From: Candidatus Firestoneibacteriota bacterium
Lineage (GTDB): Bacteria > Oederibacteriota > D2-FULL-39-29 > CAIOVX01
DNA length: 64,000 nt
Direction of reading: 5' to 3'
NCBI GenBank assembly: GCA_903861835.1
Contig: CAIOVX010000060.1
Location: 100,504 to 164,503 of the forward strand
Part shown: piece by piece, positions 1,299 through 47,014 of the stretch
Layout: the number at the start of each line of letters is the position of its first letter
Position numbering within the stretch: the first letter of the stretch is position 1
Position numbers and translations under genes: made by a program
The notes under the pieces: generated by a model
The model's database searches: none
Told to the model about the DNA's origin: nothing
What the model saw: only the letters and a program-made list of their open reading frames with translations

Positions 1299-1431
1299 CA
1301 GTTTAGATGCTTGGATGTTTGGATGATTAGACGCTGGCACAAAACATCTTCCTATCCTGAACCTATTGTGAGGCAGAGGTTTTGACCTTGCTTTTGAGCG
1401 TCCAACCTTCCAACCCTCTAAGCATCCAACT
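1299..1431. repeat. Family A interspersed intergenic element, full copy R1, about 133 bp
   Basis: About 80-85% identical to 10556..10694 by eye. The 5' end carries TTGGATG octamer repeats and the 3' end carries CATCCAAC repeats that are inverted to them. It sits between the asmA stop and the PAP2 RBS. Confidence 0.75.
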
Positions 1432-4008
1432 TCACTTACCGAACAGTCCCTTCAGCAAATCAACGCCCTTCTTCTTCAACCCTTCCCCTTCTTCCTGCAG
1501 TTTCTTCTTTGCCGCGTTCTCAGCGTTTTTACCGGCGTTGGCAAGGGATCTGTCCATGTTTGGGCTGAAAGAAGGTGCCGCAAGCCGCCCGAAAACATCA
1601 AAATCAACAGGTACCCAGCCGTCCGGCCCGGCGGAATATTTTCCCGCGTCCCCCAGTTTTGAAGAAATTGAAGGAGAAAAATCATTCCTGACGGGAAGCT
1701 GCAGTTCTGAATCCAGGTCCCGGTCAAAACCCACCCAGCCGCCTGACCCGAAATTATACCTCGCGTCATCGCAGACGACCTTCATTTCGTCAATATTAAC
1801 CTTCTGCCCGCCTATCCTGGTCCTGCCGGTCAGCTGCCTGAAGGGTATCTCTCCGGAAGGATTGACTCCGAGAGCCTTGAACCCGTCGCTGAGCGCCTGC
1901 CAATTCTTAAGTTTGCCGTCAACAAGTTTAAAGTTCAAAGAGCCTACGAGATTCTGCTTAACTTCCTTTTTGTTGGCGCCCCTGCCGGAAAAGTTGAAAT
2001 CGGAAACGGCTGCTCCCGCCACCTTGTTCTTCACCACACCTGACATCCAGCCTTCGAGAAAAGAATCAGCCGCGTCATTGACAAAATCGCCTGTCTGCAC
2101 CCCAGAGAGCGTGCCGGCAATAGAATACCCGATACCGGGGATATTCAGGTCAATCTTCGCAGCCGTCTTCACCGTTCCTCCGTATCCGTTCATGGAAGCC
2201 TTTATATCCGCCGCTCTCTTCGCGAGTTTTACATTGGAAACAATGTCTGTGAATTTTATCTTCTTAAATGCTATTTCCTTGATGTTCAGGTCGGCTTCAG
2301 CCGAAAGTTTTCCGTAAACATATCCCGTATACGCCTTTATCTCCTCGTCGGTAAAACCTGAGTCCGCGGGAACGGCCGTTCCGGGCGCGGCAGCCGTCTT
2401 TGTCTTCGCGGGAAGCGCGTCCCAGACTTCGTCCACCAGGAACTTTTGGCACGAAAGCCCCGCCTTGATATCCCCCTCGAACTTTGTCTTCCAGTCGGAC
2501 ATCGTCTCCAGGTTAAAATTAGAAGCGGTTACATATCCGGAGAACGCGGAGGTCCCTGCAAGAAAGCTGATATCCGGCAGCCGCAGCTGCTTTTCCGTAA
2601 GCAACAGGGAAGAGTTTAGTTTTGAGACACCGTACTTTACCCCGCCGTACATAAAGCCGAGGCCCGCGAGCATTCCCGAACCATTGATTTTTATTCCCTT
2701 ATAATTAACCGAATAATCTTTTGTTATGGGAATGAACATTTTGATATCCACGGAAGCAGAGCCTTCGGTTTTCATATCGCTCATTTGCGGGAGCATTGAG
2801 ACCAGTTCCTGCACTGACAGGTTTCCGGAGACCGCCACATTGACCTTCGGCGCTCCGAATATTTCAGTAATGGACTTATCTGCCTTAAAAACTGACGCGC
2901 CCGTCTCTATGTTCGAGACCGCGCGGACCGCGTCCCTCTTAACATCAAAATCAAAAGAGATCTTCGTCTTAAGACCTTTGGGTTTTGTGAACAAATCGGA
3001 GTACTTCGCTTCAACCTGGGAAAGATCCGCGTTCCCCGAACCGGACGCGTAAATATCATAGGCTTTTCCGGATTGGCGCGCTTCCCCTTTTACCGAAAGA
3101 TCAAAAGAAGCAGTGCCGGAGAGAAGGACATCTTTCATATAGGCTGCCATAACCGCAGGGAGCATAGGGGAAACTGTATTTTTAAGCTCACCGCAATCCG
3201 CGGCAACCTTTGCCTGCAGAGAAAACGCAGGGGATTCCAGGAACTTTTTCACCTCGCCTGTGGCGGTAAAGGCAAGACCCGGAAGTCTTGCCGTGAAATC
3301 CCGCAAGTACACTTCCTGCTCGTCAAACTTCACCTGCATGCTTCCTTCGGCCGACAGATTAACAGGCGCCTTGTTGTATTCCATTACGGCGGACGCTTTA
3401 ATTTTGAAAGGCTTGTCCCCTTCAAGCGACAGGCCGGTTACCGACACATTTAGTTCTTTGATTCCCGCTTTGACGGCAGGAACAGCGGAGTAATCGCTGT
3501 AGCCTATCTCACCTGAGTTTATCACGAACTTTGACATGGAAAGCTTGACCGGGAGTTTCCCGGAGGCGTTTTGACCGGGTTCAGCCGCGAGGTGAGCAAC
3601 CTTCGTCCCATTCGCCAGGTCGGCAAAATTGTACTCGCCTTTTTTGTTCTTCTCTATTAATATCTTCGGAGAGTCAAGTTCAACGGTGGTGAGGTTGACT
3701 TTTCCGAGCAGCAATGGCAGGAACTCGTACCCCGCCGAAGCCTGTTCCGCCGCGATGAAAGCCCCTGAAGTAAAACCCTCTCCGTTTCTGTTGCCTATAT
3801 AGAAACCTTTGATTCCGATGCCTTTGAAAATATTAAAATCCAGCTTCTCTATGCGGACCTCCCGGTTCAACTGCTTTGAAGCTTCGGCCGCGGCAGCATC
3901 TTTGACTTTATCCCAGGGAACAAAAAAAGCGAGCGCCGCGCCGAGAAGAAGGAGAAGCAGTACCAGTATTCCAGCGGTCAGGGCGAGAATTTTTGCTGTT
4001 TTTTTCAT
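1432..4008 (-). CDS. AsmA-family (AsmA/TamB-like) outer-membrane assembly protein
   Basis: 858 aa. N-terminal signal-anchor MKKTAKILALTAGILVLLLLLLGAALAFFVPWD, then a long beta-rich domain. ATG at 4008 is preceded by GGAGGAG. Confidence 0.65.
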   Translation of the reverse strand: MKKTAKILALTAGILVLLLLLLGAALAFFVPWDKVKDAAAAEASKQLNREVRIEKLDFNIFKGIGIKGFYIGNRNGEGFTSGAFIAAEQASAGYEFLPLLLGKVNLTTVELDSPKILIEKNKKGEYNFADLANGTKVAHLAAEPGQNASGKLPVKLSMSKFVINSGEIGYSDYSAVPAVKAGIKELNVSVTGLSLEGDKPFKIKASAVMEYNKAPVNLSAEGSMQVKFDEQEVYLRDFTARLPGLAFTATGEVKKFLESPAFSLQAKVAADCGELKNTVSPMLPAVMAAYMKDVLLSGTASFDLSVKGEARQSGKAYDIYASGSGNADLSQVEAKYSDLFTKPKGLKTKISFDFDVKRDAVRAVSNIETGASVFKADKSITEIFGAPKVNVAVSGNLSVQELVSMLPQMSDMKTEGSASVDIKMFIPITKDYSVNYKGIKINGSGMLAGLGFMYGGVKYGVSKLNSSLLLTEKQLRLPDISFLAGTSAFSGYVTASNFNLETMSDWKTKFEGDIKAGLSCQKFLVDEVWDALPAKTKTAAAPGTAVPADSGFTDEEIKAYTGYVYGKLSAEADLNIKEIAFKKIKFTDIVSNVKLAKRAADIKASMNGYGGTVKTAAKIDLNIPGIGYSIAGTLSGVQTGDFVNDAADSFLEGWMSGVVKNKVAGAAVSDFNFSGRGANKKEVKQNLVGSLNFKLVDGKLKNWQALSDGFKALGVNPSGEIPFRQLTGRTRIGGQKVNIDEMKVVCDDARYNFGSGGWVGFDRDLDSELQLPVRNDFSPSISSKLGDAGKYSAGPDGWVPVDFDVFGRLAAPSFSPNMDRSLANAGKNAENAAKKKLQEEGEGLKKKGVDLLKGLFGK

Positions 4009-7924: not shown

Positions 7925-7954
7925 ACAATGAAAAAGGGCGGCTTTCGCCGCCCT
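7925..7954 (+). terminator. Rho-independent terminator after aroB
   Basis: Stem AGGGCGGC/GCCGCCCT, loop TTTC, then TCGTTTTCTT. Confidence 0.7.
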
Positions 7955-8031
7955 TCGTTTTCTTGCTATTTTGTCAGTCAACTGTCCTCTGCCTTCCGTC
8001 TTCCGAACTGCTGCGCCTTCGCACCTCTCAT

Positions 8032-8772: not shown

Positions 8773-10043
8773 ACTTCAGTACCCTCTCCGGTCACAAAGT
8801 GTTTCCTGAAATCCGTAGGAAGCAGCAGGAAACCGAAATCATCAGTCAGCAATTCTTTCTTCAGCGCCAATACATCCAGTTTTTCCTTTATCAAAAGGCC
8901 GTAGATGCCTGCGCGCTCTATACAGTTGACGAGTATCACGCCCACCAGCCTGTTATCCTTTACGACTATTTTCTTGTACTTTCCTTCACCGCTCTTTTTA
9001 ACAACCTCATAGCCGTCCTCTTTGGGGTTGGTTATCCCGAACGAGATTGAAGGCACTCCGAGTATTTCCACAGAGTTCATCGCGAAGCTTCCGCCAAACA
9101 CATCCTTCGCTCCGGACATATTATGCCCGGCCACTTTTCCCTGCTTAGCGGCGGTCGGCCAGATCGCGATAACCGCGCCCTTTCCGGAGAGGAATTCCAG
9201 CCCTTCGGCGCAGTCTCCCGCGGAAAAAACACCCGGCACATTCGTTTCCATCCTGGCGTCAACGACAATGCCTCGGTTTACCGCTATCGGCGTGCCTTTG
9301 GCGAGAGAAACCTCCGGGCGCACGCCCACAGCCATAATCAGCAGTTTCGCTTTCAGCTTCTTTCCGTTGCTTAGGACCAGCTCTTCTATTTTGCCGGCCT
9401 TTGAAACTACCTTCTTTATGGTGGTCTCTTTAAGAAACTCGCAGCCGTTCTCTTTCAATTTTTCTTCAATGATGGCTGAAGCTTCTCTGTCGAACGTATT
9501 GGCAAGCAGACGGTCGGCGATATCAAGAATCTTGAACTTCATCTTCTTGCCGAGCAGGGCTTCGGCGGCCTTCATACCGATAAGCCCGCCGCCGAGAATC
9601 ACGGCTTCTTTTACCTTGTTCTTCTCTATGTATTTTTCTATCTCTTTCGCATCGGCTAATTTTGTAAATGTGAACACTCCCGAAAGATTATCTTTCAGAC
9701 CGTCTACAGGAATCTTTATCGGTGTTCCGCCCGAGCAGATAAGCAGCCGGTCATAGGGCAGTTTCTTTTTGTTATTGATTTCGACATGGCGGCTTTTCGT
9801 CTCTATCTTCACCGCTTCGGTGTTATAAAGCACTTTCACGCCCATATCTTTCTCGAAATCCGTCGAGGTAAAACCGATCTTATCCTTGCTAAGCTTGCCC
9901 GCAAGGTAGTACGAGATCAGGGGGCGCGAGTAGAGCCGGTCCTCGTTGCTAATGACCGTAATCTCTCCTGTTTTGTCCGATTCCCTTATGGCGGTTATGG
10001 CGTTTACAGCAGCCACGGAATAACCCACTATCACATATTTCAT
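8769..10043 (-). CDS. FAD/NAD(P)-dependent oxidoreductase, NADH:ferredoxin (rubredoxin/putidaredoxin) reductase-like
   Basis: N-terminal VIVGYSVAAVNA dinucleotide fold, LYSRPLISYYL motif, a second GGGLIGMKAA fold, and no redox-active Cys42. GGGAGA SD present. Confidence 0.7.
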   Translation of the reverse strand: MKYVIVGYSVAAVNAITAIRESDKTGEITVISNEDRLYSRPLISYYLAGKLSKDKIGFTSTDFEKDMGVKVLYNTEAVKIETKSRHVEINNKKKLPYDRLLICSGGTPIKIPVDGLKDNLSGVFTFTKLADAKEIEKYIEKNKVKEAVILGGGLIGMKAAEALLGKKMKFKILDIADRLLANTFDREASAIIEEKLKENGCEFLKETTIKKVVSKAGKIEELVLSNGKKLKAKLLIMAVGVRPEVSLAKGTPIAVNRGIVVDARMETNVPGVFSAGDCAEGLEFLSGKGAVIAIWPTAAKQGKVAGHNMSGAKDVFGGSFAMNSVEILGVPSISFGITNPKEDGYEVVKKSGEGKYKKIVVKDNRLVGVILVNCIERAGIYGLLIKEKLDVLALKKELLTDDFGFLLLPTDFRKHFVTGEGTEV

Positions 10044-10555: not shown

Positions 10556-10694
10556 TTCTTTGATGCTTGGACGGTTGGATGTTTAGATGATTAGACGTTG
10601 GAATAAAACATCTTTCCATCCGGATCCTTTTGAGGTAGAGGTTTTGACCTTGCTTTTAAGCATCCAACCCTCTAACCTTCCAACCATCCAACAA
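10556..10694. repeat. Family A interspersed intergenic element, full copy R2
   Basis: Homologous to 1299..1431 in the same orientation. It starts 1-2 nt after the gltB2 stop and ends about 50 nt before the ferredoxin ATG. Confidence 0.75.
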
Positions 10695-12188: not shown

Positions 12189-12215
12189 TTTAATCCTCTT
12201 TTCCGCAATTAGCGT

Positions 12216-12252
12216 CTTTTACTTTATAAACCTTATGAACTTTATAAACTTT
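12216..12252 (-). promoter_or_regulatory. Family C motif AAAGTTTATAAAGTTCATAAGGTTTATAAAGTAAAAG
   Basis: Overlaps the gltB1 stop codon and ends about 30 nt before the gltB2 ATG. Homologous copies lie at 36421..36454, 20155..20200 and 20307..20350. Confidence 0.4.
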
Positions 12253-20130: not shown

Positions 20131-20154
20131 AGGGCTCCTTCATAAAATGCTTAG

Positions 20155-20350
20155 AAAGTTTGTAACGTTTATAAGGTTTATAACGTTCTTAACGTAAAAC
20201 TGATAAACACAAAATTCTAAACTCTAAGAAATTACCTGCTTCTTTACTTTTTGCTTAGGATTTATCGCTTTGTGATTACACTCTGGTCTTGTTTTCTTCT
20301 CTCTGGCTTTACGTTACAAACGTTAAGAACGTTACGAACGTTATAAACCG
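20155..20350. repeat. Composite about 196 bp element with about 40 bp terminal inverted repeats built from AACGTT / GTTTATAAMGT units (family C), enclosing family B heptamers
   Basis: 20155..20200 is the reverse complement of 20307..20350 with mismatches. TTCTAAACTCTAAG lies at 20215..20228. The element abuts the recN stop and ends 25 nt before the iscS ATG. Confidence 0.5.
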
Positions 20351-28922: not shown

Positions 28923-30176
28923 TTATATCTCCACGGGAAACTTATTGCAGAGTACCTTGACCTTCTTCCTGACTCCGGCCGCTACCTTGGCGCTCGTCGG
29001 GTGATTGAGTATGTCTGCTATCATTTCGGCAATCGCGAGGCACTGATCTTCCTTCATACCGCGCGTCGTAAGAGCCGGAGTTCCCAGTCTGACCCCGCTC
29101 GTTTCAAAAGCTTTCAGCGGATCAAAAGGTATCCTGTTCTTATTCGCAGTGATGCCTGCCTTATCCATGGCCAGCGCGGCTTCCCTTCCGGTAAGCTGCT
29201 TATTCCGAAGATCCACCAGCATCAGGTGATTGTCAGTCCCGCCTGTTACCAGATTGAACCCGTTCTTTGACAGGTAATCTGCTATCACTTTGGCGTTTTT
29301 TACTATCTGCTTCTGGTATTCCCTGAACTCAGGCTGTAGAGCTTCTTTGAACGCAACGGCCTTTGCGGCGACAACATGCATCAGCGGACCGCCCTGTATG
29401 CCGGGGAAGACAGCCGAGTCTACTTTCTTCATCCATTCGCTCTTGCAGAGAATAAAGCCGCCCCTCGGGCCCCTTAAGGTCTTATGAGTCGTGCCGCCTA
29501 TGAAATCGCAATAAGGCACCGGGTCAGGGTGAACCTTCCCTACTATTAGCCCCGCAATGTGAGCTATGTCGGCCATAAAGAGAGCTCCGACTTCTTTTGC
29601 TATGTCGTGGAATTTTTTGAAATCTATTTGCCTGGGGTAAGCGCTTGCCCCTGCTATCAGCAGTTTCGGTTTATGCTTTTTTGCAAGGTTCCTAATGGCT
29701 TCATAATCCAGCAGATTAGTATACTCGCTTACTCCGTAAGAAACTGCCTTGAAGAACTTCCCTGAGAAACTCACCGAAGCTCCGTGAGTCAGATGTCCTC
29801 CGGAGGCAAGATCCATGCCCATAATGGTATCGCCGGGATTCAGGCAGGAAAGATATATTGCCATATTAGCCTGTGAACCGGCGTGAGGCTGAACATTGGC
29901 GTGCTCTGCACCAAACATTTTCTTTAGCCTGCTGATGGCCTCCGCTTCCACTTTGTCAAGATATTCGCAGCCCTGGTAAAACCTTTTCTCCGGGTAACCT
30001 TCAGCGTATTTGTTAGTAAGGACGGAACCTTGCAAAGCCATTACGGCTTTACTCGTATAGTTTTCTGAGGCAATCATTTGGAGTTTGGTGTCTTGTCTCT
30101 TAAACTCCTCGTTCACCAGCTTAGCTATCTTTTTGTCTTCCTTCTGAAGGAAGTTCTCAAAATACCCTCTGTACAT
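28923..30176 (-). CDS. glyA: Serine hydroxymethyltransferase
   Basis: SHMT along the whole length, including the PLP-Lys region [15 protein letters not shown] 30176 with GAGGAG SD. The ORF-track start at 30263 would be 29 codons further upstream, reading through family A copy R3. Confidence 0.9.
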
Positions 30177-30190
30177 ATAAGCTCCTCTAA

Positions 30191-30264
30191 ACAGATGCTC
30201 GGAAGTTCGGATGCCCGGAGGGTTGGACGCTGCACTTAAGCATCCGCGCATCTGACCCTCCAAC
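30191..30264. repeat. Family A element, internally deleted short copy R3, about 74 bp
   Basis: Shares both end modules with R1 and R2: AGATGCTCGGAAGTTCGGATG at the 5' end and TTAAGCATCC...CCCTCCAACC at the 3' end. Same orientation. Runs from the rpiB stop to the glyA SD. Confidence 0.55.
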
Positions 30265-30714
30265 CTACTTCATCAGTTTCTTTTCAAGCGCGTCTATCTG
30301 TAAAATACGGTCAGCATGTCTGCCGCCGTCAAAATCAGTCTTAAGCCAGACATTTACTATCTCTTTTATGGTCTCAGGTTTTGTGGTTCTTCCGCCTACA
30401 ACCAAGATATTTGAATCATTGTGCTGGCGGCTCATCTCAGCCGTATATTTATCGTAAACCAAGGCTGCCCTTACTCTCGGAAATTTATTAGCCACTATAG
30501 ACATACCTATTCCGGATCCGCAAACGAGAATTCCTCTTTCCGCCTCGCCCTTGCTCACGGCGCCCGCGACAGAGGCCCCATACTCGGGGTAATCCACCCT
30601 TTCATTAGTTTCCGGGCCGAAATCCTTATAGGGAACCTTGTTTTCATCAAGGACCTTCTTAATTATTTCCTTGCCTTCAAAACCCGCATGATCCGATGCT
30701 ATCACGAGCCTCAT
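30265..30714 (-). CDS. rpiB: Ribose-5-phosphate isomerase B
   Basis: RpiB/LacAB motifs including [15 protein letters not shown] 30714 with AAGGAG SD. Confidence 0.85.
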
Positions 30715-30720
30715 AATTCT

Positions 30721-30769
30721 CCTTGTTCCTACCGCGCTTACCGAACCTCTGACCATCCAAGCATCCGCC
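30721..30769. repeat. Family A element fragment R4, solo end module
   Basis: The minus strand reads GGCGGATGCTTGGATGGTCAGAGGTTCGG directly after the PTP stop codon. This is homologous to the first about 30 nt of R1 and R2. Confidence 0.4.
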
Positions 30770-31201
30770 TCACAACACCCTGGGAAGGACATTCTTCTCT
30801 ATTGCCTGCCGTATTTCCTCAAAAACCTTTTTATAGGCCTCAAGACCTGCTCCTATCGGATCAGGAATATCCTTATCGTCCAGCATCTGCGCCTTGAACT
30901 TACTTTCGGGAAACCCCGCCACTATTTGGTCAAGATGACCGCGTGTAAGAGCGAATATAAGTTCTGCCTGCGCCGCAATCTCTTTGCTTAGAAGTCTCGA
31001 TCTGTGCCCTGCGGCATTAATACCATAATCATTAAGCAAGGCTGCAGCGTTAGCAGAAACCGTGTCTCCTGGTATAGCATACGTTCCCGCCGAAGAGACC
31101 TTTATGCCGCCGGCTTTTAGTTCATGCAGCCTTTTCTTTAAAATGTATTCCGCCATAACGCTCCGGCAGGAATTGCCGGTACAAACAAAAAGTATATTCA
31201 T
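30770..31201 (-). CDS. Low-molecular-weight protein tyrosine phosphatase / arsenate reductase family
   Basis: P-loop CTGNSCRS at the N-terminus. Confidence 0.8.
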   Translation of the reverse strand: MNILFVCTGNSCRSVMAEYILKKRLHELKAGGIKVSSAGTYAIPGDTVSANAAALLNDYGINAAGHRSRLLSKEIAAQAELIFALTRGHLDQIVAGFPESKFKAQMLDDKDIPDPIGAGLEAYKKVFEEIRQAIEKNVLPRVL

Positions 31202-31836
31202 CTTATATCTATTACCACGTCTTCCAGTTTGGCCTTCTTGAGCGCGCCTTGCCTTACAATCTTGGGATGCTCCCCGGTTACATCTACTATAGTTGAAACC
31301 ACCTGATGAAGCGTGGTTCCTGTATCAAGTATATAATCAAGACTGTCCCCGAGCTCGGCAAGCACCTCGCCAGCGGTAACGGGATCCTTCTTTCCGGAGA
31401 TATTCGCGCTTGTTACGACCAGCGGCTCTTTAATCGCCTTCAAGATATCTATGACCGGTTTACAATCAGGGATCCTGACGCCGATGGTCTTCAGACCGGC
31501 GGTTATTTCCCTTGATAGAGATTCCGCCGCCGGGAAAATCAGAGTGAGAGGTCCTGGCCAAAATGTTTCCATAAGGTCAATCGCGAATGGGGGCATTTCC
31601 TCTATAAAATCATCAACCTGGTGCGGATCGCTTACGAAAATAATAAGCGGTTTTGTTCTCGGTCTGTTCTTTATCCTGTAAATCCGGTCAACAGCCTTAA
31701 GATCTTTCATACGCGCCGCTATGCCATACACGGTGTCCGTCGGGATACCGATAACCGCTCCCTCTTTCAGTTTCTCAACCAAGAATTTAATCTTAGATTT
31801 ATCCACTATCTTATTTTGGTGCGCCGGCGCCGTCAT
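31198..31836 (-). CDS. tsaC: L-threonylcarbamoyladenylate synthase (YrdC/TsaC/Sua5 family)
   Basis: YrdC domain with the PTDTVYG motif. Confidence 0.8.
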   Translation of the reverse strand: MTAPAHQNKIVDKSKIKFLVEKLKEGAVIGIPTDTVYGIAARMKDLKAVDRIYRIKNRPRTKPLIIFVSDPHQVDDFIEEMPPFAIDLMETFWPGPLTLIFPAAESLSREITAGLKTIGVRIPDCKPVIDILKAIKEPLVVTSANISGKKDPVTAGEVLAELGDSLDYILDTGTTLHQVVSTIVDVTGEHPKIVRQGALKKAKLEDVVIDIR

Positions 31837-32366: not shown

Positions 32367-32475
32367 AACCACCCCTTATTGCATAACGATAGAAGCATTG
32401 CGAATAAACTCTTGATAATTAGTATAACAGAAGGCGTCTGGAATTTTCAAGGAATAAGGAAAACCAAAGAACAAA

Positions 32476-32503
32476 TTCTAAACTCTAAATACTAAACAAA
32501 AAA
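32476..32503. repeat. Family B tandem heptamers TTCTAAA-CTCTAAA-TACTAAA-CAAAAAA
   Basis: Three to four 7-nt direct repeats about 110 nt upstream of the purE ATG. Related arrays lie at 20215..20228 and 46886..46913. Confidence 0.4.
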
Positions 32504-36389: not shown

Positions 36390-36420
36390 AATCCCTCCGC
36401 GTTCCCGTAACCCACCTCGC

Positions 36421-36454
36421 GCACCTTACAAACCTTATACACTTTATAAACTTT
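36421..36454 (-). promoter_or_regulatory. Family C motif copy AAAAGTTTATAAAGTGTATAAGGTTTGTAAGGTG
   Basis: Overlaps the prfB stop and ends about 35 nt before the hemerythrin ATG. Confidence 0.4.
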
Positions 36455-37550
36455 TCTTGCCCCCCGCCTTCATTTTCAAATATGCCTCAATAAATCCGTC
36501 AATTTCTCCGTCCAGCACGCCCTGGGAGTTGCTCGTCTCGAATCCGGTACGCACGTCTTTTATCATCTGGTAGGGCTGGAGTACATAGGATCTGATCTGG
36601 CTGCCCCACTCTATGTCTTTTTTCTCGCCTCCGACCTTGCTCATCTTCTCATCCTGCTGCGCCTTGTAATATTCATAGAGGCGGGATTTTAGGACTTTCA
36701 TTGCTATAATTTTGTTCTTTAACTGAGACCTCTCGCTCTGGCAGGTTACCACGATGTTAGTCGCGTAGTGTGTCATCCTCACTGCCGAGTCTGTTCTGTT
36801 GATATGCTGCCCTCCGGCCCCTGAGGCCCGAAAGGTGTCAAGCCTGTAATCTTCTTCCTTCACTTCAATCTGCACGTCATCCACTTCAGGAGAGATGTCA
36901 ACAGAAGCAAAGGAGGTATGCCTTCTCTTATTGGCGTCAAACGGGGAAATACGCACCAGCCGGTGAACGCCTTTCTCGGATTTCAAATATCCGTACGCGT
37001 TCGGACCGGAGACAAGAAGCGTGGCATCTTTAACACCGGCTTCTTCGCCGGGCAGCAGGTCTATGGTCTCAACTGCGAAGCCCCTGCGTTCTATCCATCT
37101 TGAATACATGCGCAGAAGCATGGAGGCCCAGTCCTGGGATTCCGTGCCGCCGGCGCCGGGGTGAATGGATAAGAAGGCGTTATTGGCGTCATACTCGTCG
37201 GTAAAATAGACGTAAAGCTCCTGAGCTTCTATGTCTTTTTGGAGTTTAACGGCTTTAGCTTCAAGTTCTTTGAGGAAGGAATCGTCCTGTTCGAGAGCCA
37301 GCAGTTCAAGCCCCGCCTTTAGGTCTTCCCGGTCGGCGTTAAGTTTATTCCAGCCGTTTATGTCCCGGAGAAACTGTTCTCTTTTCTTAAGAAGCTTTCT
37401 TGCCTTCTCGTTGTCTCCCCAGAAATTATTACCTGCAGACTCTTCATCTATCTTTTTTATCTCTTCCTGTTTACCGTCGATGTCAAAGATGCCCCCGTAA
37501 CTCAAGAACTCTCTTTTCCAGCGCCGCGTATTCGTATTTAAGGTCTGACA

Positions 37551-39259: not shown

Positions 39260-39436
39260 TCAGAACCTAAACAAATATAAGCACCAAATCACAAGCATCA
39301 AATAACAATCAAACTAAATCACCTAAGCCTAAATCACAAAGTCCAAGCACCAAATCCCATATAAAATAATAAAAATAAAATCGCAAAATACTTTTGAAAC
39401 ACTTTGTTTTTACTTTTTTATGTTTATTTGGTGCTT

Positions 39437-46882: not shown

Positions 46883-46985
46883 AAGCACTAAATACTAAAT
46901 TCTAAATACTAAACAAGGCAAAGTGAAAAACGCCGGCAACAGCAAGAAAGATTGTTTTGTCGCTTTTGTTTAGAATTTAGTGCTT
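46883..46985. repeat. Family B heptamer array (CACTAAA-TACTAAA-TTCTAAA-TACTAAA) forming the 5' arm of an about 100 bp hairpin with 46967..46985
   Basis: TTGTTTAGAATTTAGTGCTT is the reverse complement of the heptamer arm. Located 20-120 nt upstream of the argD ATG. Confidence 0.45.
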
Positions 46986-47014
46986 AGCATTTTTTTGGTT
47001 TTCTTTTTTACGGC

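Follow-up and report, generated by a model that had tools for sequence, protein, structure and literature searches.

An octamer-array repeat family beside intercistronic stop codons in Candidatus Firestonebacteria and its two core-less copies around rpiB

Based on the sequence comparisons presented here, the two short repeats on either side of rpiB in a 64-kb window of Candidatus Firestonebacteria DNA (the window being the whole stretch analysed) are copies of a repeat family, referred to below as family A, which is also represented in the window by two longer members; the four copies are designated R1 to R4, with R3 located between rpiB and glyA and R4 between a phosphotyrosine phosphatase gene and rpiB. 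The description of family A as a lineage-specific repeat, in which each arm is an array of an 8-nt unit and a unique core of 51-53 nt is optional, is well supported. Equally well supported, by comparison with related lineages, is the view that R3 and R4 are old, vertically inherited and partly decayed copies, not recent insertions. The position of the arrays appears to be tied to the sites where ribosomes stop, the mRNA strand being the one that is G-rich and C-poor. With moderate confidence, we favour the reading that these are the slippage-prone, stop-anchored arrays of an inherited repeat family, whose distribution would reflect a filter on survival together with an effect at the RNA level.

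Composition and inheritance of family A

Read in sense, the stop-side arm of family A consists of GUUGGANG repeated three to four times and the far arm of the complementary CNUCCAAN repeated four to five times, the sense unit being NUYRGANG in the former and its complement in the latter. R1 and R2 carry four stop-side octamers, a unique core of 51-53 nt and four to five complementary octamers. An octamer-pair pattern (KYRGANGNKYRGANG) matches the window 17 times against 0.5 expected, in every case within R1-R4 (three matches in R3, two in R4), and the only matches to a four-octamer pattern are the arms of R1 and R2, four in all. Tandem Repeats Finder gives a period of 8 with 3-18 copies, that is, a head-to-tail short-unit repeat longer than chance. 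The copies and the genes around rpiB are as follows.

1301-1430, minus strand: R1, full-length copy between the AsmA-like and PAP2 genes (four octamers, 53-nt core, four octamers)
10558-10692, minus strand: R2, full-length copy between the glutamate synthase (Glu_synthase domain) and 4Fe-4S genes
28923-30176, minus strand: glyA, serine hydroxymethyltransferase (Pfam SHMT, 5e-159)
30182-30189, minus strand: Shine-Dalgarno (SD) sequence of glyA, UAGAGGAG, adjoining R3; the glyA ATG is at 30176
30190-30264, minus strand: R3, two-armed core-less copy (3+5 units) filling the rpiB-glyA spacer, from its sequence and its collinearity with core-deleted R1/R2
30190-30229, minus strand: far arm of R3, five octamers, CGUCCAAC CCUCCGGG CAUCCGAA CUUCCGAG CAUCUGUU
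30230-30240, minus strand: loop of R3, 11 nt, CUUAAGUGCAG
30241-30264, minus strand: stop-side arm of R3, three octamers, GUUGGAGG GUCAGAUG CGCGGAUG
30265-30267, minus strand: stop codon of rpiB, UAG, 0 nt from R3
30265-30714, minus strand: rpiB, ribose-5-phosphate isomerase B (Pfam LacAB_rpiB, 6e-55)
30719-30724, minus strand: SD of rpiB, AAGGAG, 21 nt past R4
30738-30745, minus strand: degenerate fourth unit of R4, UUCGGUAA
30746-30769, minus strand: R4, one-armed, three octamers, GGCGGAUG CUUGGAUG GUCAGAGG
30770-30772, minus strand: stop codon of the phosphatase gene, UGA, 0 nt from R4
30770-31201, minus strand: low-molecular-weight phosphotyrosine phosphatase gene (Pfam LMWPc, 5e-28)
31198-31836, minus strand: Sua5/YrdC gene (Pfam)

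R3 and R4 are real copies of family A. R3 is collinear with R1 and R2 minus their 51-53 nt core, with no internal rearrangement (z about 15); its ortholog in a related lineage (locus L147) aligns with core-deleted R1/R2 at z 35 with one gap, and the R3 loop matches the core-flanking junctions of R1/R2 (CUUAA... and ...GUGCCAGCGUC). R4, which has no partner arm, shows a modest likeness to the 5' arm of R1/R2 (z 3.5-5.8). The central core of R1/R2 (AAGCAAGGUCAAAACCUCU...GAUGUUUU) is absent from both; together with the collinearity of R3, this makes R3 and R4 core-less derivatives or relatives and not full members, the alignment of R3 being compatible either with loss of the core or with insertion of the core into a short form. 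An earlier note on this DNA had described both sequences, which are indeed present on the minus (sense) strand. Its picture of R3 as an internal-deletion copy holds as regards a core-less, two-armed element collinear with R1/R2, although the missing piece is 51-53 nt and not about 60; R4, seen there as an end-only copy, is half a copy comprising one arm, but R4 proper extends over 24-32 nt and not 49. What had been taken for end modules of the element are not fixed transposon ends; they are tandem octamers in variable number (3 versus 4, 4 versus 7, 5 versus 6 and 7 versus 19 units).

Homologs of RpiB led to contigs of relatives. In the lineage whose RpiB is 92% identical, each of the two spacers has its counterpart element at the same stop, longer by one octamer: UAG followed by four octamers for the R4 ortholog, and UAA, four octamers, CUUAAUUUCAA and five octamers, also without the core, for the R3 ortholog. 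At four-fold degenerate sites, the flanking genes of the two lineages share only 40-67% identity (61-67% next to R3), and R3 and R4 therefore predate a deep split. Unit by unit, R3 and its ortholog are about 73% identical (hand count), which is close to the synonymous level, and both R3 and R4 look as though they drift nearly neutrally. In relatives with 72% and 69% identical RpiB, the two spacers hold other periodic arrays starting at or near the stop, namely A-rich 8-mers and a GGAUUUA heptamer hairpin.

Unit number differs between orthologous arrays. R2 has four units in the window and seven in L082/L159; a copy between the alpha and beta genes of pyruvate/2-oxoacid:ferredoxin oxidoreductase (POR) has seven in L141 and 19 in L137; a one-armed array after a P-II gene has six in L056 and five in L118; and an array of the 9-mer family described below has three in the window and five in relatives (L082 5178-5255). 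The far, C-rich arm changes in unit number much less than the G-rich arm. These differences suggest that the arms are slippage-prone arrays whose unit number changes by slippage; as array length varies between strains, such arrays are usable as strain markers.

The long copy R2 behaves differently from R3 and R4 in its conservation. The R2 spacer is 92% identical to its L159 ortholog over 186 aligned positions, its far arm being invariant over 33 nt and its core about 91% identical, whereas identity at four-fold sites is 52% and 57% in the two adjoining genes; this points to strong constraint on this long copy, and R2 likely does something. Copies at three unrelated loci (AsmA-PAP2, glutamate synthase-4Fe-4S and POR alpha-beta) share the first 19-33 nt of the core without a difference, which suggests that the long copies have been dispersed to at least three such places. 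All predicted pairs in a consensus structure of the core, drawn from five copies, are invariant; with no compensatory change to be seen, the comparison is uninformative. The idea that R1/R2 encode a small protein was set aside, the lineage differences in R2 being all non-synonymous and accompanied by a frame-shifting indel; the frames that begin at octamer AUGs in R1/R2 end 70-80 nt before the next start. Of the 25 stretches returned by a metagenome scan with the 19-nt core, only two (L137 and L141) are true copies, and most of the others are a transposase-end repeat of other organisms. The same 19-nt string also ends an unrelated repeated sequence (...AAGCAAGGTCAAAACCTCTGGGACGC...TGAACAGTTAC) at many contig ends in other metagenomes (L122, L124-L126, L128-L129, L131, L138, L142, L145-L146); it is probably an insertion-sequence terminus and is not related to family A.

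Known classes of element were also considered. No Rfam family matched the window at gathering thresholds, and relaxed thresholds around R1, R3 and R4 gave only chance-level matches (E 0.6-6); no promoter was found in the R3/R4 region. An intrinsic terminator was rejected, there being no terminator-like site at R3/R4 and no U run adjoining the R1/R2 hairpins. An integron attC site was rejected as well: GTTGGAT and ATCCAAC fit RYYYAAC/GTTRRRY in an order reversed relative to the genes, which belong to core metabolism, and no integrase was seen. R4 matches the RfaH ops site at 9 of 12 positions; this match and that to the elemental pause motif were rejected as weak or wrongly oriented.

The window's lineage is Candidatus Firestonebacteria, orthologous DNA being present in a metagenome-assembled genome (MAG) of that name (L082); the name is also carried by more distant PAP2 homologs. 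A JGI metagenome contig (JGI 3300009502, Ga0114951_10000774) encodes an identical glyA product, and the identical PAP2 is present on a 210-kb JGI contig; look-ups of the window's own RpiB (taken from its wrong start) and PAP2 returned nothing on record. All the genes flanking R1-R4 are on the minus strand, as are all the genes of the window. The local order from Pfam is Sua5/YrdC, phosphatase, rpiB, glyA and dCMP deaminase, and R3 and R4 lie inside the Sua5-phosphatase-rpiB-glyA string, with which they are presumably co-transcribed. The true start of rpiB is the ATG at 30714 (149 aa as in homologs) and no start further upstream; the second octamer of R4 contains an AUG that shares the rpiB reading frame and from which a public annotation (L001) begins the gene, giving 163 aa and not 149. 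Likewise, the glyA frame is open across the whole of R3, beginning at UUG 30263. The arrays are thus an annotation hazard, since they provide false in-frame starts (rpiB called inside R4, glyA frame open through R3).

Placement beside stop codons

Placement was followed in about 90 kb of non-redundant sequence of the lineage, a sub-genome sample. A four-octamer pattern scan of genome contigs gave at least 120 matches, mostly in unrelated phyla, with four Firestonebacteria loci among the matches listed. The arrays start at +1 (R1), +2 (R2), 0 (R3) and 0 (R4) nt from the upstream stop, which bears out the earlier claim that one end of the element lies within 0-2 nt of it, and at -20 for POR alpha, -6 for P-II and +7 in the creatininase-acetyltransferase spacer of L159. 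The two negative offsets reflect genes that read into the array and stop inside an octamer (GGU UAG for POR alpha, GGA UGA for P-II). In all seven loci, the G-rich strand is the coding strand and the array lies within 50 bp of a stop between aligned genes; an eighth copy (L085) has the sense orientation with respect to the gene that follows it. C-rich arrays were seen only as the downstream partner of a G-rich arm. The shared orientation and stop-side anchoring proposed for R1-R4 thus extend to further copies (G-rich array in sense, -20 to +7 nt from the stop, 7/7 independent loci), and the further copies found in the lineage sample show none of the random placement or orientation that would have spoken against the proposal. 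These placements fit the two causes suggested in the note, insertion-site selection and selection for a function, alike. The other end was said to sit at the next SD. This is the case for R1 (1-2 nt from GGAGGG) and R3 (0 nt), but R2 ends some 41 nt and R4 some 21 nt ahead of the SD, and placement on the side of the ribosome-binding site (RBS) is not strict.

Since R1, R3 and L141 fill their entire spacers, adjacency at both ends is trivial there. Information comes instead from R2, R4 and the one-armed arrays, all of which lie close against the stop though 20-40 nt of spacer remain. When the start-side gap is reduced by about 12 nt for the SD and its spacing, and other repeat families are included, the stop-side gap is smaller than the start-side gap in about 10 of 11 informative loci (hand count; sign test about 0.01). 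A neutral model in which deletion trims everything but the array was rejected, as array-free spacers of 30-65 nt persist in the same operons.

The same slots are used by unrelated repeat families. A 9-mer family (sense RGUUNNUAA) occurs in the window at 12189-12252, 20131-20350 and 36390-36455 (minus strand). At 12242 and 36444, a 9-mer unit supplies the last two codons of the upstream gene and its UAA, and more UAAs follow in frame at 9-nt intervals; the 20131-20350 site has a pair of inverted arrays that make a hairpin of about 200 nt, beginning 1 nt after the stop. The prfB gene upstream of a 9-mer array contains the classical programmed +1 frameshift site (CGGGGGCAU CUU UGA C; window 37482-37497, minus strand), in which an SD-like GGGGG precedes CUUUGAC and which is kept in L147 (3120-3136); split or short gene calls are the consequence. 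Directly after the stop of the ATP synthase gamma gene, a hairpin starting AAGCACCAAAU extends over 39260-39436, and the same gamma-beta slot holds a 9-mer hairpin in the relative with 92% identical RpiB (L147 1265-1379). A 7-mer family (UUUAGUA / UCUAAAU) forms a hairpin at 46884-47014, the far arm of which abuts the start of the next gene, and a single array at 32462-32499, in the 269-nt spacer that precedes purE, where it lies upstream of a promoter-like region. After the GXGXG-domain gene, the last of the glutamate synthase cluster, the purine-rich 7-mers GGAAGAC GGAAGGC AGAGGAC (7925-8031, minus strand) are followed by an intrinsic terminator (GAAGGGCGGCGAAAGCCGCCCUUUUU); in L159 this slot contains four 9-mers instead (3260-3349).

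Between the window and the 88-92% lineage, the same family occupies the slots of R2, R3, R4 and two 9-mer arrays. The AsmA-PAP2 slot of R1 has family A in the window and an unrelated element in L159, and is empty in the 58% relative (L162/L163), where the spacer is 36 nt long. The L159 element (9877-10000) is built from GGACAGAGGUCNGU units and AAUCAGY 7-mers and closes with a small hairpin, CCGGCGGAGCCGG, immediately ahead of the SD. At L085 1-264, family A octamers, 7-mers and the 3' module of this L159 element are joined in one spacer, which indicates that modules recombine; arrays of different families probably replace one another in the same slots, by recombination or by new insertion. 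The slot matters more than the repeat family. Given the unrelated families in the same slots and the arrays that precede terminators, the phenomenon is wider than family A.

Octamer arrays near stops were also surveyed beyond the lineage, in 126 arrays from the loci of the listed four-octamer matches, using the stop of frames of at least 100 codons; gene calling was crude and the numbers are indicative. With the G-rich strand in sense, 25 of the 126 (20%) start between -30 and +12 nt of a stop against 6.8% of random positions in the same loci; for the C-rich strand in sense, the corresponding values are 14 (11%) and 6.0%. Hairpins with octamer arms start 4-13 nt after a stop at L080 4305-4404, L098 6576-6770 and L121 2345-2461, and also at L016 749-952, L029 2330-2393 and L020 111-175, in MAGs of Phycisphaerales, Gemmatimonadales, Flavobacteriales, Anaerolineae and Saprospiraceae. 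Examples of their arm units are ACGUCYAA/UURGACGU and GGUCGGAC/GUCCGACC, and the hairpin of the Phycisphaerales MAG spans exactly the interval from the stop to the next SD.

Interpretation of the stop-anchored arrays

In the reading that we favour, two processes would act on an inherited family. Copies would survive only if the upstream reading frame and the downstream RBS are spared and if no long, unstructured C-rich RNA is offered for Rho loading, either because the sense orientation is C-poor or because the C-rich arm is hidden in a hairpin; the Rho-avoidance step would follow from established properties of Rho. At the RNA level, the imperfect hairpin of two-armed copies would begin 0-2 nt after the stop, such that a terminating ribosome would have to melt its base, and this melting would modulate termination and decay of the upstream cistron. 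Hairpins of repetitive extragenic palindromic (REP) elements within about 15 nt of stops are reported, in E. coli, to lower the expression of the gene upstream. In copies whose far arm adjoins the SD (R1, R3), the hairpin would also affect how accessible the downstream RBS is. Coupling through intercistronic structures that the ribosome helps to unfold is well established (PMC4538824). Folding of the long copies is consistent with such a role: R1 gives -52 kcal/mol (z -5.2) and R2 -47 kcal/mol (z -4.7), and the sense RNA of long copies folds 8-35 kcal/mol better than the antisense (-51.8 vs -43.4, -47.1 vs -39.1, -74 vs -51 and -91 vs -56 kcal/mol), a difference that is absent in R3. G-U pairs in the sense and antisense folds are equal in number in R2 and more numerous in sense in the other four long copies. 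R3 and R4 look like weakly functional or non-functional relics.

Several observations weigh against this reading. The R3 fold is not significant (z -1.7, with a better hairpin in its ortholog at z -2.5), R4 has none (z -0.4) and neither does its ortholog, and the L159 element at the R1 slot lacks one too (z +0.3); the hairpin therefore cannot be the common denominator. The 5' arm can outgrow the pairing capacity of the 3' arm (19 vs 7 units in L137), and the energy gap between sense and antisense follows in part automatically from G+U richness. Arrays also follow the last genes before terminators, and thus coupling to a downstream RBS cannot be the general purpose. The survival filter alone leaves unexplained why one-armed arrays with 20-40 nt to spare hug the stop. 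All genes of the window being on one strand, orientation relative to transcription is inseparable from orientation relative to replication, and every functional step of the proposal is inferred.

Family A could instead be a classical non-autonomous transposon, MITE- or REP-like (MITE, miniature inverted-repeat transposable element), mobilized by a transposase in trans that targets sites at or beside stops, with R3 and R4 as functionless deletion derivatives. The long copies with a nearly invariant 19-33 nt core at three unrelated loci and the empty and replaced sites at the R1 slot are what such an element would leave behind, as are the elements that supply the stop and last codons of the upstream gene, in the manner of GTAG REPs (PMC3733652), and the GTAG or GTGA found before the first octamer in R1-R4. 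However, the flanks of R1, R2 and L141, inspected by eye, show no target-site duplication, and the TAG...TAG flanking R3 is unique to R3 and missing in its ortholog. The arms vary in unit number without fixed terminal repeats, one-armed arrays are common, and no transposase gene occurs in the annotated neighbourhoods (about 90 kb of the lineage). Moreover, R2, R3 and R4 stayed put across a divergence that left four-fold sites 52-67% identical, and unrelated repeat families use the same slots. We regard this explanation as unlikely. Much the same standing is given to a neutral origin, in which arrays without selected function arise by a mutational process where nascent RNA loses its ribosomes, for instance R-loop slippage with a G-rich non-template strand. 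This would account for the rapid change in unit number between orthologs, the divergence of R3 and R4 at nearly the rate of synonymous sites, and the several unrelated unit families found in the same slots and also before terminators. It would account equally for the G-rich-sense bias, with a G-rich arm far more expandable than the C-rich one, and for the excess of G-rich-sense arrays near stops in other phyla (20% of 126 octamer arrays vs 6.8% of random positions). It fits poorly with the 92% conservation of R2, which includes a non-repetitive core and an invariant 33-nt 3' arm, with a unit consensus kept over loci and lineages despite near-saturated synonymous divergence, with the dispersal of a unique core to three loci, and with the AT-rich 9-mer family, which is not G-rich yet equally stop-anchored; a purely neutral history is improbable.

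A function as single-stranded RNA motifs, either two-tetrad G-quadruplexes (G4) or GGA/SD-like ladders that hold post-termination 30S subunits or a CsrA-type regulator, is very improbable as the explanation for family A, even though (GGUUGGAN)n resembles the thrombin aptamer GGTTGGTGTGGTTGG and has a GG-N2-GG-N2 spacing. ViennaRNA with G-quadruplex energies predicts G4 in the L147 ortholog of R4, in the lone 5' arm of R2 and in the L159 7-mers, but none in the R3 or R4 of the window. The octamer arrays contain only GG tracts, and a two-tetrad G4 loses out to the hairpin (-30 to -90 kcal/mol) wherever both arms are present. GGA, GAGG or GGAGG is found in most array families (the octamers, AGAGGAC, GACGGAA, GGAUUUA), yet position 4 of the unit is often A (UUAGAGG), so that GGA is not invariant, and the 9-mer (GUUUAUAAC), A-rich 8-mer and AAGCACCAAAU families share the slots without G-runs or GGA. 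The same positional bias has been reported for G4-forming heptamers (PMC4692102), and S1, Csp and CsrA have been proposed as binders of TAACTGA repeats (PMC4679880). A broader possibility, which we consider distinctly doubtful, is that stop-anchored short-period arrays constitute a general intercistronic class, not yet described as such, whose position is set by translation termination; the class may reflect R-loop-linked birth and expansion of repeats, or selection for landing ladders or structures by which ribosomes after termination, or a GGA-binding regulator, are dealt with. If this were true, R2 would be a working example, and the octamer enrichment after stops in other phyla a wider footprint. 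Should the anchoring reflect function, the arrays would provide a compact and evolvable means of tuning between neighbouring operon genes in an uncultured phylum; should it reflect a mutational process, the end of translation would leave a mark on the dynamics of DNA repeats. As regards R3 and R4, the outcome is a modest one: both are old copies undergoing drift.

Relation to known repeat families

Short intergenic repeats are known from several bacterial groups. The STRR sequences of cyanobacteria are intergenic tandem arrays of heptamers, and the MIRU of mycobacteria are intercistronic elements in operons, with 40-100 bp units in a single orientation and in variable tandem number, whose small reading frames overlap the flanking genes at their ends. 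By contrast, the frames that start at octamer AUGs in family A end far from the next start, and every difference in these frames between orthologs is non-synonymous. MITEs such as Correia/NEMIS, ERIC, RUP and BOX are non-coding, dispersed elements of about 130 nt with inverted ends and internal-deletion derivatives; they are co-transcribed with their neighbours, and their long RNA hairpins can affect mRNA stability. Family A resembles them in its dispersed copies at three unrelated loci and in its presence/absence polymorphism (empty in L162/L163), but differs in the lack of a target-site duplication and of a fixed terminal inverted repeat, in its one-armed arrays and in its strict sense orientation. 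Reviews of bacterial MITEs are PMC2229807 and PMC3184786.

The TAACTGA heptamers of Beggiatoaceae, cyanobacteria and Bacteroidetes (MacGregor 2015, PMC4679880) are likewise intergenic 7-nt arrays of variable copy number, with units that contain stop codons, and a post-transcriptional role via RNA-binding proteins has been proposed for them (PMC4679880). Unlike family A, they lie just upstream of start codons and are direct repeats without a complementary partner or core (PMC4679880).

The closest known cases are the REP elements and the G-rich heptamer arrays of Xanthomonas and Nostoc. REP/BIME elements of the GTAG/CGTC type (Di Nocera et al. 2013, PMC3733652) are, like family A, small intergenic palindromic repeats located mostly downstream of coding regions; they lie between unidirectional or convergent genes, their ends can supply the stop of a flanking gene, their G-T pairing suggests action at the RNA level, and their copy number and presence vary between strains (PMC3733652). 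They are single palindromes of 20-40 bp with 5-13 bp stems and a tetranucleotide tag, and are often linked to a RAYT transposase (PMC3733652), whereas family A elements are 75-310 nt long, with octamer-array arms of 24-150 nt that contain periodic mismatches, and include no 20-40 bp palindrome; no RAYT was seen in the annotated neighbourhoods of family A (about 90 kb of the lineage). As for the tag, the flank is GTAG in R2 and R3, GTGA in R1 and R4, and GTAA/ATAG in orthologs, always coinciding with the stop codon, and the far arm begins with CGUC in all copies. The heptamers of Xanthomonas and Nostoc (GGGAATC / GGGGAYT; Rehm et al. 2015, PMC4692102) are short-unit (6-9 nt) G-rich tandem arrays that are enriched between co-directional genes, placed on the coding strand within 50 bp of the stop or overlapping it. 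As in family A, close relatives differ at a given gene pair in the number and sequence of the units, and inverted copies could form stem-loops; the heptamer arrays are transcribed and have no known function (PMC4692102). Family A differs from them in its 8-nt unit, in having only GG runs (at best two tetrads), in its host phylum, in its tighter anchoring (0-2 nt), in the regular pairing with a complementary downstream array, in the dispersed 51-53 nt core of its long form and in the non-G-rich families that occupy the same slots. To the known repertoire, family A thus adds an 8-nt unit, the pairing of G-rich with C-rich arrays, a dispersed core, a tight anchoring to the stop and the coexistence of several unit families.

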